NCBI GenBank assembly: GCA_963823185.1
Contig: CAWGKP010000011.1
Span: forward strand, 331,223 to 395,222
Source of the DNA: an uncultured Acidobacteriota bacterium
GTDB taxonomy: Bacteria; Acidobacteriota; Thermoanaerobaculia; UBA5066; Gp7-AA6
DNA: 64,000 nt
Direction of reading: 5' to 3'
Of this stretch, positions 1,090-5,157 are shown in pieces. The first letter of the stretch is position 1. Each line of letters opens with the position of its first letter. Under the pieces are notes generated by a model. It had not been told where the DNA came from, made no database searches, and worked only from the letters and a program-made list of their open reading frames with translations. The translations under genes were made by a program, and so were the position numbers.

Positions 1090-1271
1090 ACTCCTCGCGT
1101 TCTCGTCCAGTGACTTAGAAGCGCCTCCGTGTCCCGCCGGGACCACCAACGAGTGACCCAGACGAAGCGCAGCCGCCGAAACGGAAGCGCTCGCTAAGGG
1201 CTCCGATCGAACTCGCTCGGACCGGCCACGCTATGTCAGTAGTCAGTGACAACGATCTTCGGTTGATGCTT

Positions 1272-2756
1272 CTATCGCGGGAGACTCTTCAGCTGCGAGG
1301 CTAAATCCCGAACCGATTTCGCATCGAGGCATTCGCGACGAATGGATTCGCGCAGCAGAACAAGAGCTGCAGCCCCCTTCGCCAGAAGACCGGCCCTCTC
1401 AATCGCGGGCAACGCCGCGATAACCTCTGCCTTCGCTTCTGATTCTCTGCCCAGCGCCAGAAGAACCTCGGCGACAAGAAGGCGTGCGTAGGCTGCCAAC
1501 GTTGCCAAGCCCAACTTCTCATAAGTGACACGCGCCGCAGTGTAGGCGTTCAGCGACCTTTCCAACTTCGAGCTCTTTCGGTAGCGTTCTCCAGCAACCA
1601 AGCTCAGATGCGCGACCGCCGTTGGACCTTCGTGGCGCTGAAGGATGGAGGCAGCAATCCGCAGACATCCGTCGGCCTCCACCAAGCGGCCGAGAATCGT
1701 ATAGGAATCTGCCAAGAACAACAGCGCGACGGCCCTCAGTACCGGTCTTCCAACGAACGCCGAACTCCCGAGACCTCGCTTCAGCGGCGCTACCGACTCT
1801 TCGACGAACCCGAGCAACTTGAGGCAATCTGAGAGCAGGATCTCGCTCTTCGCCAAACAGGTCACCATCCCCAACGCCCGCATCCTGGGCTGTAGTTCGT
1901 GCAGTGCGTCGACAACCTCAGCGCAGCGACCCTGTTCCTGAAGGCCAACCAGTCGATTGAAGTCAACCTCCGCTCGACCCAGTTCCGGAACGATCGTCCT
2001 TTTGTTGTGCCATTCTGCGATCTGCAGCCACTCTGCACTTCGCTCCATTTCACCGGTCCACCGAAGGGACACGGCAACTGTGATCGCAAGCTGGCTCAAG
2101 AAAAAGGAACGCTCATCGCCGGCGGCGCCGATCTCAGTGTGGGATTCAAGTAGCTGAAAGAATGACACGGCATCTTCCGAAACCTTTTCCGGGAATGAAT
2201 TCCTCTCCTCACGGAGGAGTGCGCAAATGGCGAACAGGCTCTCGAGGTCGGAAACGAGATTCAACGTCACCTGCGCAGACCGATCCCCGGCCGGCGATCG
2301 TAAGAACGAGCGCAAATAGTCGAGATTCGTTGACCCGTTGAGGATTAATTGGTCGAATCGCTCCGCCCAAGTTTGAGACGCCAAGGCACCCTCAAGCCTT
2401 CTCGAATGCCTCCAAGCCAGGAATGCAAATCGGGACAATAGCTCTGAGACTTCGCCAAACTGCTCTTCCGGCAGCTGTCTCTTCGAGAGCCAATGAAACG
2501 CTGACTGTGCGAGTCGTAGCACCTCGTGCGATGGGCTCCCATCCTCGGCCAATTCGTTACCTAAGACACTGAGGGCGTTCAAGACTTCATCCGGTTCGTT
2601 CGACTCCGCTGCGTAGCTCTCTCCGGACAGCAATGACCTGATCAACGCCACTTCACGAGAAACGGCTCGACTCTCGGGTACCAGCCAACGAACGCCTCGG
2701 GTCGCCTCGAGCCAACCTTGGATCGTTGCAGTGGTGAGGGGAGCGTGCTCAGTCAT
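1272..2756 (-). CDS. All-helical TPR-like repeat protein, 494 aa, function unknown; paralog of 3201..4322
   Basis: A long ORF inside the lower-GC segment, with Leu/Ala-rich helical-repeat character. The last ~75 aa are ~45% identical by eye to the C-terminus of 3201..4322 (AALPAIE..AALVLLRESIRR versus AALPTIE..AALSLLRESVRR). No TM segment, HTH or catalytic motif was recognised. The ATG overlaps the upstream stop by 8 nt (ATGACTGA). Confidence 0.6.
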   Translation of the reverse strand: MTEHAPLTTATIQGWLEATRGVRWLVPESRAVSREVALIRSLLSGESYAAESNEPDEVLNALSVLGNELAEDGSPSHEVLRLAQSAFHWLSKRQLPEEQFGEVSELLSRFAFLAWRHSRRLEGALASQTWAERFDQLILNGSTNLDYLRSFLRSPAGDRSAQVTLNLVSDLESLFAICALLREERNSFPEKVSEDAVSFFQLLESHTEIGAAGDERSFFLSQLAITVAVSLRWTGEMERSAEWLQIAEWHNKRTIVPELGRAEVDFNRLVGLQEQGRCAEVVDALHELQPRMRALGMVTCLAKSEILLSDCLKLLGFVEESVAPLKRGLGSSAFVGRPVLRAVALLFLADSYTILGRLVEADGCLRIAASILQRHEGPTAVAHLSLVAGERYRKSSKLERSLNAYTAARVTYEKLGLATLAAYARLLVAEVLLALGRESEAKAEVIAALPAIERAGLLAKGAAALVLLRESIRRECLDAKSVRDLASQLKSLPR

Positions 2757-3132
2757 CAGAGGATTGCCTGTCTCTCGGAACTGGAGACGACGGAACGATC
2801 CAGCGGGCAGACAGACGGGACCTTCTGTCGACTTTGCGCTGAAAGTTGGCTGCCAAGTTGTCGACCACTTGATAGAGCCAAGCCTTGGGGTTTCGAGACG
2901 GATCCAGTCTTGCGACAGCTAAGACAAATGCATCCTGTACGATGTCGCCCGCGTCCTCGAATTGGAGACGATGGCGTCGGACTGTCCGACGCACGAGAGG
3001 CAGGAAGTAGAGCCTGTAAAAGTCTTCAAACTCGGACTGCGTCATCCCCCCGGGGCATAGCGGCTCAGCCACCGACCTCCGGTCAGCTCCGCCCTTCGCG
3101 AAGCGTCCGCACGCCCGGCTTGAGTCATTCAC
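2749..3132 (-). CDS. Small sigma-70 region-2-only protein (ECF-like regions 2.1-2.4, no region 4)
   Basis: FEDFYRLYFLPLVRR..DAGDIVQDAFVLAV..AWLYQVVDNLAANFQRKVDRR matches the ECF sigma region 2 pattern. The ORF ends ~35 aa later without a region-4 HTH. The start is GTG 3132 or ATG 3045. It is translationally coupled to 1272..2756. Confidence 0.55.
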   Translation of the reverse strand: MNDSSRACGRFAKGGADRRSVAEPLCPGGMTQSEFEDFYRLYFLPLVRRTVRRHRLQFEDAGDIVQDAFVLAVARLDPSRNPKAWLYQVVDNLAANFQRKVDRRSRLSARWIVPSSPVPRDRQSSDD

Positions 3133-3200
3133 TAACCCTATATTGTCACGAGGTCACAAGGTCGCCCGGCGGCCAGGCTGAGGATGGGACTCGACTTTGA

Positions 3201-4322
3201 TCATGCCCGGGGTTGTAGACGCTCCTTCACTTCGCGAAGGGCCGAAACGTCAGCTGCCCGTCGACGAACGGATTCTCGAAGGAGGGAGAGAGCCGCGAAC
3301 CCCTCCGGCACCATGCATTCACTCTCGATCGTCGGCAAGGCAGCAAGAATCTCCCACTCGGCCTCTCGATTCCGCGACAGCGCGATGAGAGTTTCGGCCA
3401 AGAGCACTCGGTAGTAGGCGACGAATGTTGCCATCTCGAGGGCAAGATAGTCACCGACCGCTCCGCGTAGCAGCTCCGCAGCAAGACCGAGGCTGTTCTG
3501 GCACCTGAGATATTCCGCGGCTGCCACCTTAAGATGTGCAGCGACAAGCGGCTGCGACGTAAGCGACCCGTTTGCCAGAGCATTTCTCAGCGTCTCGATC
3601 GCCTCTGCCCCCCTACCGCTCGCGGAAAGCAGTTCAGCCCGGTTCGCCACCACCATTCCGTACAACGTCATGTCCTCAGCGATGTATGACGTGTCAGGCA
3701 GCGCCTCGAGGCGACCGAGAGCCTCCGCGGTCCGATTCAGGTTCTTTAGGGCCATAGCCTCCAGGAACCGCGTCTTAAGCTCATACCGTCTCATCTCGAG
3801 CATTTCGAAAGTCTTCATCAAGGACGGAACGGTGGCCAAGACCCGTTCGTAACGATGCATGTCATAGTGTTGAGCCATTCGCTCGAAGGAAACCCTGGCG
3901 AGAGAGGCGACCGGGCTAATCGTGTGTCGGAAGCCCGCTTCTGCGCGATCGAACCAAACATCAGCCTCGTCTCGTCTTCCGAGCAACCGGCAGGCGGCGC
4001 CCGCCAACAGCGCCGACTCACCTTCGAGGTAGTCGCAGTCGTCAAATAGGCCAAGACGAACCGGAGTCTCGGTCAACCGCTTGTGAATGACTTCCGCTTC
4101 CTTCGCGACATCGCCAGGATGGCTGTTCATCCGCGCAGCCAGATCCGCGCAGATCGCAAGAACCACGTCGGCGTCGCGAAGACACGACTCTGCTAGAGAT
4201 TCAGACCGCTCGGAACAGTCGAGGCTCAGGTACTCCGCGGCCAACCTTCGCACTTCCGCTGACGTGCGGCCCGTGGAATTCCCCTTTGACGGGAACGCGA
4301 GAATGCGAGCCGAGCTAGGCAT
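3201..4322 (-). CDS. All-helical TPR-like repeat protein, 373 aa, function unknown; paralog of 1272..2756
   Basis: It has the same C-terminal signature as 1272..2756 and a helical-repeat composition. The ATG overlaps the upstream stop by 8 nt (ATGCCTAG), the same geometry as the other pair. Confidence 0.6.
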   Translation of the reverse strand: MPSSARILAFPSKGNSTGRTSAEVRRLAAEYLSLDCSERSESLAESCLRDADVVLAICADLAARMNSHPGDVAKEAEVIHKRLTETPVRLGLFDDCDYLEGESALLAGAACRLLGRRDEADVWFDRAEAGFRHTISPVASLARVSFERMAQHYDMHRYERVLATVPSLMKTFEMLEMRRYELKTRFLEAMALKNLNRTAEALGRLEALPDTSYIAEDMTLYGMVVANRAELLSASGRGAEAIETLRNALANGSLTSQPLVAAHLKVAAAEYLRCQNSLGLAAELLRGAVGDYLALEMATFVAYYRVLLAETLIALSRNREAEWEILAALPTIESECMVPEGFAALSLLRESVRRRAADVSALREVKERLQPRA

Positions 4323-4725
4323 CAGGATTGATTCTCAAAGAAAGCAGCTCAAGGCTGCGGCTGAAGTCACGCGCAACATCGGCGGGTTCACGTTCGAGAA
4401 GTCGCTTGAGGCGATCGTCCGTCTCCCGAACACCGGTCCCAACGACGTACCGCTGATACTCGCGCGCGAATTGGCAACATGCCACCAAGAGGAAGGGCCT
4501 CGAATGTCGGGGAGACCGGCTGCCCGGCCGTGCGCAAAACCTCAAGAACCACACGTAGAGGTCCTTCTCTAGCTCGGTCGCCTCAGCCTCCTGGAGACCG
4601 TAGTGCGTAACTAGGGCGATGTGAAGGAGACCGACTGTGTCCTGAAAGACTTCTCGGACCTCGCGCTCGAGCGACTGCTCGCGCGACTCTCCAGATCTGA
4701 TTTCGTCCGAGATCTCCATGGGCAC
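4315..4725 (-). CDS. Small protein with diverged sigma-70 region-2-like pattern, 136 aa
   Basis: EATELEKDLYVWFLRF...RPFLLVACCQFAREYQRY loosely follows the region 2.1-2.4 spacing of the 2749..3132 product. An SD-like GAGGAAGG lies 6 nt upstream of the ATG. The functional call is weak. Confidence 0.4.
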   Translation of the reverse strand: MPMEISDEIRSGESREQSLEREVREVFQDTVGLLHIALVTHYGLQEAEATELEKDLYVWFLRFCARPGSRSPRHSRPFLLVACCQFAREYQRYVVGTGVRETDDRLKRLLEREPADVARDFSRSLELLSLRINPDA

Positions 4726-4755
4726 CTTCCTCTGGGATGTGTATCTACTGCCCGG

Positions 4756-4784
4756 AGGTTACACCTGCCCACCAGAACAGTCAA
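4756..4784 (-). promoter_or_regulatory. Candidate sigma-70-type promoter for the 4725->1272 gene string (TTGACT - 17 nt - TAACCT)
   Basis: On the minus strand, the -35 TTGACT is at 4784..4779 and the -10 TAACCT at 4761..4756, with a 17-nt spacer. It lies about 30 nt upstream of the ATG at 4725. This is a pattern match only. Confidence 0.35.
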
Positions 4785-5157
4785 ACCACTTTCGTGACAT
4801 CTATCGATATCACGTAAGTGGCCAATTACCAGCTAGTTAGCTTGTGGCTAGAAGGGGATTGGTGATACTGCCTTTTCCAAGACTGTCCCTTTCGCCAAAT
4901 GGCCCGGGCACCATGCCCGTGCCGGAAACCGAGCGAAACTCGCCCTTGCGGGTCTTCGCTCTGGAATGACCGCGGCAGAAAGCCTCGATCACACCAGGGC
5001 GAAGTCGCCGTAGTGAGTGGCAGCTGAAAGACGCCGCCTAAGCTCGTTTCAGGGGTCCCACCAAGTGGCCGAATCGGTGAATCAAGAGAATTCCACCACA
5101 GAAGTGGGCGGGGGTGGCAAGTTTTTTTTACAGGGGGCGAAAAAAGGGGGGACTGGA

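Follow-up and report, generated by a model that had tools for sequence, protein, structure and literature searches.

A cluster of four minus-strand genes, here called A, B, C and D, lies close to a glutamate tRNA gene in a 64,000-nucleotide stretch of DNA from an uncultured Acidobacteriota bacterium (assembly GCA_963823185.1, contig CAWGKP010000011.1, positions 331,223 to 395,222; the whole stretch is referred to as the window). Judged by its sequence, the product of C is a genuine stand-alone sigma region 2 of the extracytoplasmic function (ECF) type that lacks region 4, and its gene overlaps that of D, a large tetratricopeptide repeat (TPR) protein. A region-2-only sigma protein coupled to a TPR protein was the core of an original prediction made from the letters of the window; that core is upheld here and extended to a whole lineage. 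What might such a cluster do? The explanation tentatively favoured, at somewhat less than an even chance, is a chromosomal regulatory module in which the TPR proteins would gate small helical partners and C would act on RNA polymerase (RNAP).

The four open reading frames (ORFs) are confirmed on the minus strand at 4315-4725 (A), 3201-4322 (B), 2749-3132 (C) and 1272-2756 (D), and ARAGORN places tRNA-Glu(UUC) at 1015..1089 on the plus strand, convergent with D. Read off the raw sequence, the A/B and C/D junctions are 8-nt overlaps, ATGCCTAG and ATGACTGA; genes, tRNA and overlaps are all as originally described. For comparison, one genome per GTDB species was scanned with an alignment of A, and the 69 loci obtained were annotated by ORFs and hidden Markov models. 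The ATG of B is at -8 relative to the A stop in most loci scored, whereas the C/D overlap is variable (-4, -8, -11 or none). The identical overlap geometry stressed in the original prediction thus holds in this genome, and lineage-wide for A/B, but not for C/D. As the C/D overlap varies within the lineage, the matching 8-nt overlaps of this genome are a coincidence. Translational coupling would nevertheless mean that A with B, and C with D, are each probably made in fixed proportion.

The product of C (2749..3045, minus strand; 98 amino acids from the ATG at 3045, in a frame open to a GTG at 3132) matches Pfam Sigma70_r2 (PF04542) with an E-value of 9e-11 and 41.8 bits, against a cut-off of 24. 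It also matches many NCBIfam ECF models, over their region 2 part only, and the PDB structures nearest to it in a profile search come from SigR, RpoE and SigW, in each case the sigma2 domain. Pfam and NCBIfam give no match to region 4 in C, in keeping with the earlier description of this frame. The 89 homologues of C are all 71-131 amino acids long and carry PF04542 only. Their alignment retains the hallmarks of regions 2.2 and 2.3/2.4, and D60, Q66, F69, W85 and the motif NPKAWLYQVVD are invariant. No relatives of C were found in IMG/VR. The ATG at 3045 is more likely to be the start than the GTG at 3132, because a conserved element overlaps the GTG and because the homologue P0004 starts likewise.

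This element, like the mini-ORF and leader discussed below, is absent from the original prediction. It reads CTCGTGACAATATAG (3138..3153, minus strand), is the sole conserved block of the B-C spacer, and represents a candidate promoter of the -10 type only, or an operator, for C-D. Its core, CTCGYGACAATAT, is sharply conserved and lies directly upstream of C, and in the alignment the spacer is unconserved apart from CTCG[T/C]GACAATA[T/G][A/G]. A search of 79 loci (~1.1 Mb) finds the exact 11-mer TCGYGACAATA in 48 of them, as a single copy except in L004 and L005, which have two exact copies; three CTCGTGACAAT copies appear there in the spacer alignment. The 11-mer is directly upstream of C except in L013, where no C ORF is called, and L044, where it is on the opposite strand. 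Where insertions displace C (L033, L052, L057), the element moves with it. The B-C spacer alignment shows no conservation of anything like a -35 above the element, and there is no AAC-type -35.

Could C be one half of a two-subunit sigma factor of the SigO-RsoA kind, with another polypeptide supplying region 4 and -35 recognition? Split sigma factors exist, and a protein limited to region 2 is what one of the two subunits would look like. The second subunit is the difficulty. No region 4 or helix-turn-helix (HTH) was detected in A, B, D or the Pfam-annotated conserved neighbours, the rest of the genome not having been searched for a partner; in particular there is none detectable in D, as was noted in the original prediction. 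The structural model of A has no sigma4-like neighbour, and the lack of a conserved -35-like block above the C element also speaks against this arrangement. There is room for a partner encoded elsewhere in the genome, but a split sigma factor is very unlikely.

If not a region 4 subunit, what is the partner of C? D (1272..2756, minus strand) is an all-helical TPR protein of 494 amino acids, and B (3201..4322, minus strand; 373 amino acids, its ATG 8 nt before the A stop) is its paralogue, D having ~150 extra N-terminal residues. The two are 30% identical over 345 amino acids (E 1e-29), rising to 46.8% across the last ~80, and the homology of the large proteins with a C-terminus ~45% identical, as originally described, is therefore confirmed. 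Members of this TPR family match Pfam TPR_12 (46 of 54) and TPR_MalT (29 of 54), while no RNPP-type Pfam signal or HTH is present in B or D. An exhaustive profile search with B/D gives 854 representatives, 279 of them below 1e-30, in size classes of ~370 and ~490 amino acids; among the best 150 of the 854 (all 197-514 amino acids) there are no fusions to other domains. No anti-sigma match from Pfam or NCBIfam falls at the cluster, the partner D being a TPR solenoid and not an ASD/ZAS fold. An exact look-up of the window D protein returned no record.

The AlphaFold2 (AF2) model of D is of good quality (pLDDT 89.5, pTM 0.89). In a Foldseek search of the PDB, the best target-normalised template modelling (TM) scores, 0.62-0.63, are with Rap proteins in the closed form, bound to peptide (Phr), namely 4gyo, 8rsv, 8rtc and 8rte. 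This predicted resemblance is a lead, not membership in the Rap family. B and D diverge far faster than their neighbours; D is the fastest-evolving member of the cluster, with a median orthologue identity of 29%, compared with 42% for B.

The other small protein is of a different nature. A (4315..4719, minus strand) has 134 amino acids counted from a conserved start, MEISDE, although the ORF is open to a GTG at 4725. It has 648 homologues, the best 120 of which are at least 69% identical, and H35, H41, W59, C64, C84 and a QFAREYQ motif are invariant in the alignment. Is A a second sigma region 2, as the original prediction loosely supposed? BLAST shows no similarity between A and C. A and 35 relatives (36 members) have no Pfam or NCBIfam match, even at E up to 5; alignment of the A-family and C-family profiles by hhalign gives a probability of 0.2% (E 0.34); and a search of the PDB with the A-family profile returns nothing. 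The AF2 model of A has five helices (pLDDT 82.6, pTM 0.75), and Foldseek finds for it no neighbour with E<1 in PDB or BFVD, and none that is sigma4-like. On these searches, the reading of A as another sigma2 is rejected. The protein is helical, highly conserved and an orphan, and not demonstrably sigma-like. As A is unrelated to C, the cluster consists of two pairs of a small helical protein and a TPR paralogue, with unrelated small partners. The earlier idea of one duplication embracing the whole pair must be given up, as only the TPR halves are paralogous; the repeat that does occur, in locus L007, comprises a mini-ORF, A and B.

This mini-ORF lies in the spacer between A and dacB, the next gene upstream, which is ~380-530 nt long in most lineages and contains conserved blocks. 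In the window it consists of 10 codons, from TTG to TAG, encodes MEKAVSPIPF (4848..4880, minus strand) and has a Shine-Dalgarno (SD)-like sequence, GGCGAAAGG, just upstream. The lineage consensus is M-x-x-[LIV]-x-x-x-[VI]-P-x-stop, and in unselected spacer alignments the NTG, the V/I-Pro codons and the position of the stop are invariant. A strict pattern recovers the mini-ORF in 47 of 62 loci, and a looser one in 12 of the remaining 15. All four CCN codons are used for the proline (third-position entropy 1.6-1.9 bits) and the stop is always codon 11, which indicates selection on the peptide. L007 has two A-B pairs, each with its own mini-ORF; the duplicated unit is thus mini-ORF, A and B. Second A-B pairs are seen at 7570-9110 in L007, L008 and L024, at 10274-11850 in L052 and at 10252-11815 in L057; those of L052 and L057 look degraded.

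The rest of the spacer is also ordered. Across the lineage, an A-tract with TTGACA is followed by TGTGA-N6-type and GGTGGGA motifs, a GC hairpin, the SD-like GGCGAAAGG and the mini-ORF, and after the mini-ORF come a hairpin, TTGACT-N17-TAnnCT, and the SD and ATG of A. The leader upstream of the mini-ORF (4881..5129, minus strand) is ~250 nt long and shows conserved blocks in the alignments. In the window these are the A-tract with TTGCCA at 5115-5129, TGTGnnnnAAT and GGTGGGA; the leader also holds a long-range helix and, just before the SD at 4901-4923, a GC hairpin. RNAalifold within one clade gives 26 pairs, 4 with compensatory changes, although the covariation term is weak; this is suggestive, and the leader is probably structured. 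Only the SD-proximal hairpin survives in a consensus RNA structure across all clades, where the alignment is poor, and Rfam at E up to 1 has no match in the dacB-A spacer of the window or four relatives. A palindrome resembling CRP/FNR sites, TGTGA-N6-TCACA, is present ~190 nt upstream of the mini-ORF in L031, L035, L047, L051 and L059, and in degenerate form at 5085-5110 in the window (TGTGGTGGAATTCTCT).

Downstream of the mini-ORF by 25-35 nt is the second hairpin (4793..4814, minus strand). A stem of ~5-10 bp folds in 35 of 36 loci, with z below -2 relative to shuffled sequences in 15 of the 36; its position is kept, but almost every species has a stem sequence of its own, and there is no U-tract. 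Next is a promoter-like site of the housekeeping type, TTGACT, 17 nt and TAACCT (4756..4784, minus strand), in which the TTG is invariant and TAnnCT conserved over the 36 loci. This site might be the promoter of A-B, a role assigned by inference only. A simple scan of 900-5400 found no canonical sigma-70 promoters or terminators above the shuffled expectation.

What is the mini-ORF for? One answer is that it encodes a cis-acting arrest peptide, whereby its translation and the hairpin downstream set the expression of A-B, the peptide itself having no function. The centring of conservation on the C-terminal [V/I]-P-x-stop and on exact length, the strong SD, the hairpin at a fixed 25-35 nt and the long, conserved leader all fit this. 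Less easily accommodated are the lack of a U-tract in the hairpin and the TTGACT-N17-TAnnCT sequence, whose position between the hairpin and A suggests separate transcripts. Arrest is possible, though on balance it would not be expected to prove correct.

The alternative is signalling by the peptide, of the RRNPP or leaderless kind, in which the 10-amino-acid product is the ligand of B and/or D and releases or activates A and C. The mini-ORF is under selection at the peptide level and duplicates along with A-B; D resembles a peptide-bound Rap; and leaderless signals of 8-10 amino acids are known for TPR receptors of Firmicutes. Two lineages also have a gene of the OppA type (SBP_bac_5) separating B from C. 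Known leaderless peptides, however, are highly hydrophobic and restricted to Firmicutes, and the mini-ORF peptides are not hydrophobic. The putative receptors have no HTH or RNPP Pfam signal, no exporter is present, the peptide carries no secretion signal, and the fixed [V/I]-P-x-stop end suits an arrest peptide acting in cis equally. Such signalling is unlikely. The OppA/DppA-type gene encodes 526 amino acids and is found in L007-L009 (11635-13215 in L007). In L033, an unannotated B-C gap of similar size is probably the same insertion, judged by spacing.

A bolder combination can be imagined, a hybrid circuit in which a minimal sigma, C, reads promoters of a single extended -10-type element and is checked by a Rap-like D, with A-B in parallel and a leaderless 10-residue peptide as ligand. 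It is quite unlikely as a whole. If true, a peptide receptor in a diderm phylum would signal straight to RNA polymerase. To our knowledge, no RRNPP-type receptor and no split or minimal sigma factor has been described in Acidobacteriota.

How did the cluster come to be where it is? Contigs that carry homologues of C have the same surroundings as the window on the dacB side, with A to D following. All 69 loci are from metagenome-assembled genomes (MAGs) labelled Acidobacteriota or Thermoanaerobaculia, from soil and sediment, and the order helicase (DEAD_2, on the opposite strand), dacB (S13 peptidase), A, B, C, D is nearly invariant. Counting only loci where the contig extends far enough, all have dacB (59/59) and the helicase (58/58) upstream, and the counts for the presence of B, C and D are 55/57, 55/56 and 46/49. 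The exceptions are mostly due to frameshifts in long-read assemblies or to insertions. Identities to the window proteins are 77% for the helicase, 69% for A, 60% for both C and dacB, 42% for B and 29% for D, and those of the cluster proteins scale like those of the neighbours. The same site and order across the lineage show that the cluster is not an accessory, tRNA-associated module. The original prediction had leaned towards an accessory locus, and itself named lineage-wide synteny as evidence to the contrary; that synteny is what the 69 species display. By gene order and identity, the cluster is vertically inherited, lineage-specific and located immediately downstream of dacB.

The base composition might have led to another conclusion. 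The G+C content is 0.55-0.61 over ~1100-5200, compared with ~0.70 in the flanks, and is the lowest of the entire 64-kb window; the six 2-kb windows most deviant in tetranucleotide use fall in 1001-5500 (z 2.7-3.3). The lower G+C next to tRNA-Glu, originally estimated by hand, is thus confirmed by computation. At third codon positions (GC3), A-D have 0.61-0.68 and the flanking MR_MLE and helicase genes of the window 0.94-0.95. In the 69 species, however, the median GC3 of A-D is 0.62-0.65 versus 0.88-0.90 for helicase, dacB and SpoIIE, and low GC3 of the cluster genes is seen in every locus. A deficit common to all relatives is no mark of recent transfer. Retained across deep divergence, it cannot be un-ameliorated foreign DNA and must be maintained, whether selection acts on the DNA or on translation, GC-biased conversion is reduced, or some other process is at work. 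Two other, milder dips are found in the window, at 9400-10800 and 53000-55000 (0.61-0.65).

Horizontal acquisition of a duplicated 'sigma2-only + TPR' module beside tRNA-Glu is consistent with the strong deviation in G+C and tetranucleotides, the adjacent tRNA and the variable space between D and the tRNA in relatives. It is refuted by the shared order on the dacB side in essentially all 69 loci and by low GC3 in all of them. Furthermore, A is not a sigma2, the window ORF list and Pfam show no integrase or transposase ORFs, and no tRNA-derived direct repeat was found around the cluster, so that the original prediction rightly stopped short of calling it a mobile element. Acquisition of this kind is improbable in the extreme.

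An inverted repeat that encloses the tRNA and the cluster was considered as the ends of a mobile unit and rejected; it is context and does not belong to the module. Its 41-nt arms, 942-982 and 5156-5196, are 98% complementary and have two copies only in the window, but each arm is self-complementary and follows the stop of a gene, both arms being oriented alike relative to that gene. The sequence is G+C-rich, CCCTCTCCCG-GTGA-CGGGAGAGGG followed by GGGTGAGGGTCTC, and forms a hairpin at 5156..5232 (minus strand) directly after the dacB stop, with the copy at 942-982 directly after that of MR_MLE. Relatives carry either copy independently, which points to an element resembling a repetitive extragenic palindrome or terminator, placed at gene ends, and not to the ends of a mobile unit. 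The window dacB (5233-6923, minus strand; true stop at 5233-5235) has two frameshifts, near 5530 and 5315, relative to the intact L002 orthologue. Similar breaks in dacB or the helicase of many related long-read MAGs make assembly indels likelier than a pseudogene.

Beyond D, the surroundings vary. In the window, tRNA-Glu and MR_MLE follow directly, whereas many other lineages have a SpoIIE-type phosphatase. Unrelated genes separate D from tRNA-Glu in L002 (5.5 kb) and L006 (2.8 kb). The adjacency of the tRNA is incidental and limited to this genome and its closest relatives. The variable spot in L002 (5884-11137) holds DUF6623, a SulP/STAS transporter and small ORFs; that in L006 (11873-14270) holds an ArsR-type HTH gene and a metallo-beta-lactamase-fold gene; in the window it holds nothing.

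The SpoIIE/PP2C gene lies after D on the same strand at 9983-11245 in L004, and is also seen in L022, L023, L028, L029 and L033; it is absent in the window lineage. Its product may work together with the cluster in a partner switch. Might C then be a sigma mimic or decoy, a bait for D in a switch of the PhyR-NepR style, or a competitor for the beta-prime clamp? Sigma mimicry is established, the TPR partner is coupled to C, and the SpoIIE-type PP2C phosphatase found after D in many loci would, as part of the same rather unlikely reading, drive the switch. Yet C keeps the core-binding and -10 motifs that are degenerate in PhyR, the cluster has no receiver, STAS domain or kinase, and the window lineage lacks SpoIIE altogether. 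The mimic itself is likewise rather unlikely.

L001 has a HicB-like/nucleotidyltransferase toxin-antitoxin pair between dacB and A (4426-5432), and an insertion sequence (IS) 21 fragment with a 1747-amino-acid RHS protein after D (9969-15726). Insertions at either side indicate that both borders of the cluster tolerate them. Might the cluster itself be a sensor in conflict or defence, with diversifying TPR sensors and an effector aimed at transcription, kept AT-rich like many defence loci? The fast divergence of D and B and the atypical composition could be so read, as could the toxin-antitoxin genes, RHS toxin and IS fragments beside the L001 cluster. PADLOC, however, gave nothing above noise, its one match being a weak one of A to Cas11e (E 0.005) where no cas genes are nearby. 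Phage relatives are lacking in PHROGs, BFVD and IMG/VR, no NTPase or nuclease effector is present, and the cluster is near-universal at a fixed chromosomal site. A role in defence is highly unlikely.

How, then, would a regulatory module work? Three units can be envisaged: the 10-codon mini-ORF with its ~250-nt leader; A-B, translationally coupled and transcribed from a housekeeping-type promoter; and C-D, also coupled, with C keeping the ECF hallmarks for contact with the -10 element and with the clamp helices of beta-prime. Each TPR protein would bind its small partner 1:1 and control its availability, as a cytoplasmic anti-sigma or Rap does; D for C, and B for A, would sequester or activate through the TPR groove. 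Free C would bind core RNA polymerase at these helices and, without region 4, might direct it to promoters that consist of a single element of the extended -10 type. The CTCGYGACAATAT sequence before C could be the first such site and provide autoregulation of C. The rapidly diverging TPR surface would be the side of signal input, and the mini-ORF would either control A-B expression in cis, as an arrest peptide, or supply a ligand of the TPR receptors.

This regulatory module draws on observed domain content, paralogy, coupling, synteny, the conserved DNA element and the mini-ORF; from these we infer the protein complexes, the binding to RNAP, the use of promoters and the signal. Several points weigh against it. 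A has no recognizable relation to transcription. The superposition of D on Rap has a query-normalised TM of only 0.47-0.49 with a root-mean-square deviation of 7.6-8.7 Å, and generic TPR proteins outrank Rap by E-value in the Foldseek search. The element before C matches a -10 hexamer weakly (CAATAT) and could equally be the operator of an unrelated repressor. A second copy is absent from the 64-kb window, and a 15-mer scan of metagenomes was swamped by chance matches: of the 120 stretches found, 6 carry a C-family ORF; most of the others are contigs of low GC, and 16 of higher GC showed no related context on inspection. With no second copy in the window and an uninformative scan, no regulon is visible. 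The persistent GC3 deficit, finally, is not explained by a regulatory module.

The significance of the cluster goes beyond one genome. The definition of a cellular sigma factor rests on regions 2 and 4. A conserved family from many species that has region 2 only, is always coupled to a large TPR protein and is preceded by an element of the -10 type only would test what minimum of a sigma factor suffices for promoter-specific initiation, and would show how such a factor is regulated. The mini-ORF ending in [V/I]-P-x-stop is a candidate for a new peptide, with a leader or signalling role, in a phylum that has received little study. A vertically inherited locus with a 25-point GC3 deficit is also a warning against equating low G+C beside a tRNA with horizontal transfer.

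How does the cluster compare with known systems? With ECF (group IV) sigma factors C shares a typical sigma2, a co-transcribed and coupled partner and, as in autoregulated ECFs, a conserved element before its own gene. ECF factors differ in that they have sigma4, an ASD/ZAS anti-sigma partner and an AAC-type -35, whereas the partner of C is a soluble TPR protein, and the conserved CTCGYGACAATAT upstream of C has no conserved -35 block with it. ECF classification required both sigma2 and sigma4, and the C family therefore falls outside it. In SigO-RsoA of Bacillus subtilis, the sigma2 and sigma4 functions are split over two proteins; the likeness is in separate polypeptides, one with region 2 only, and the difference is that no sigma4 partner is in or near the cluster, that the partner is a 494-amino-acid TPR protein, and that the phylum is another. 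ECF42 combines sigma2, sigma4 and ~200 amino acids of TPR in a single polypeptide, the TPR being needed for activity. It also ties an ECF sigma module to a TPR module, but here sigma4 is missing and the TPR protein is separate and much larger.

The sigma-like domain of PhyR is a sigma mimic, with sigma2 and sigma4 whose functional residues are degenerate, plus a receiver. It resembles C as a sigma-derived domain serving as the interaction module of a partner switch, and C differs in having sigma2 only, with motifs preserved and no receiver. The late sigma factor gp55 of phage T4, which approximates region 2 in function, acts on promoters of the -10 type only and needs accessory proteins. It is the nearest functional analogue of a -10-only sigma, the likeness being one of function; its co-activators are gp33 and the sliding clamp and not a TPR protein, and the present cluster is cellular, with no viral relatives found.

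Leaderless communication peptides of 8-10 amino acids (RopB-SIP) are ligands of TPR receptors; they are known from Firmicutes only and are hydrophobic. The cluster is like Rap and other RRNPP systems in its all-helical TPR proteins of ~370-490 amino acids and its adjacent 10-codon ORF with its own SD. It is unlike them in that there is no HTH or Rap target (Spo0F/ComA), and in that the mini-ORF is upstream of A and not beside the receptor; those systems are known in Firmicutes and their phages, whereas the host here is a diderm Acidobacteriota. A and C as targets of the Rap type would be unprecedented. As at least one defining feature of each known family is missing, the cluster is best filed as a sigma-related variant, a member of none of them.

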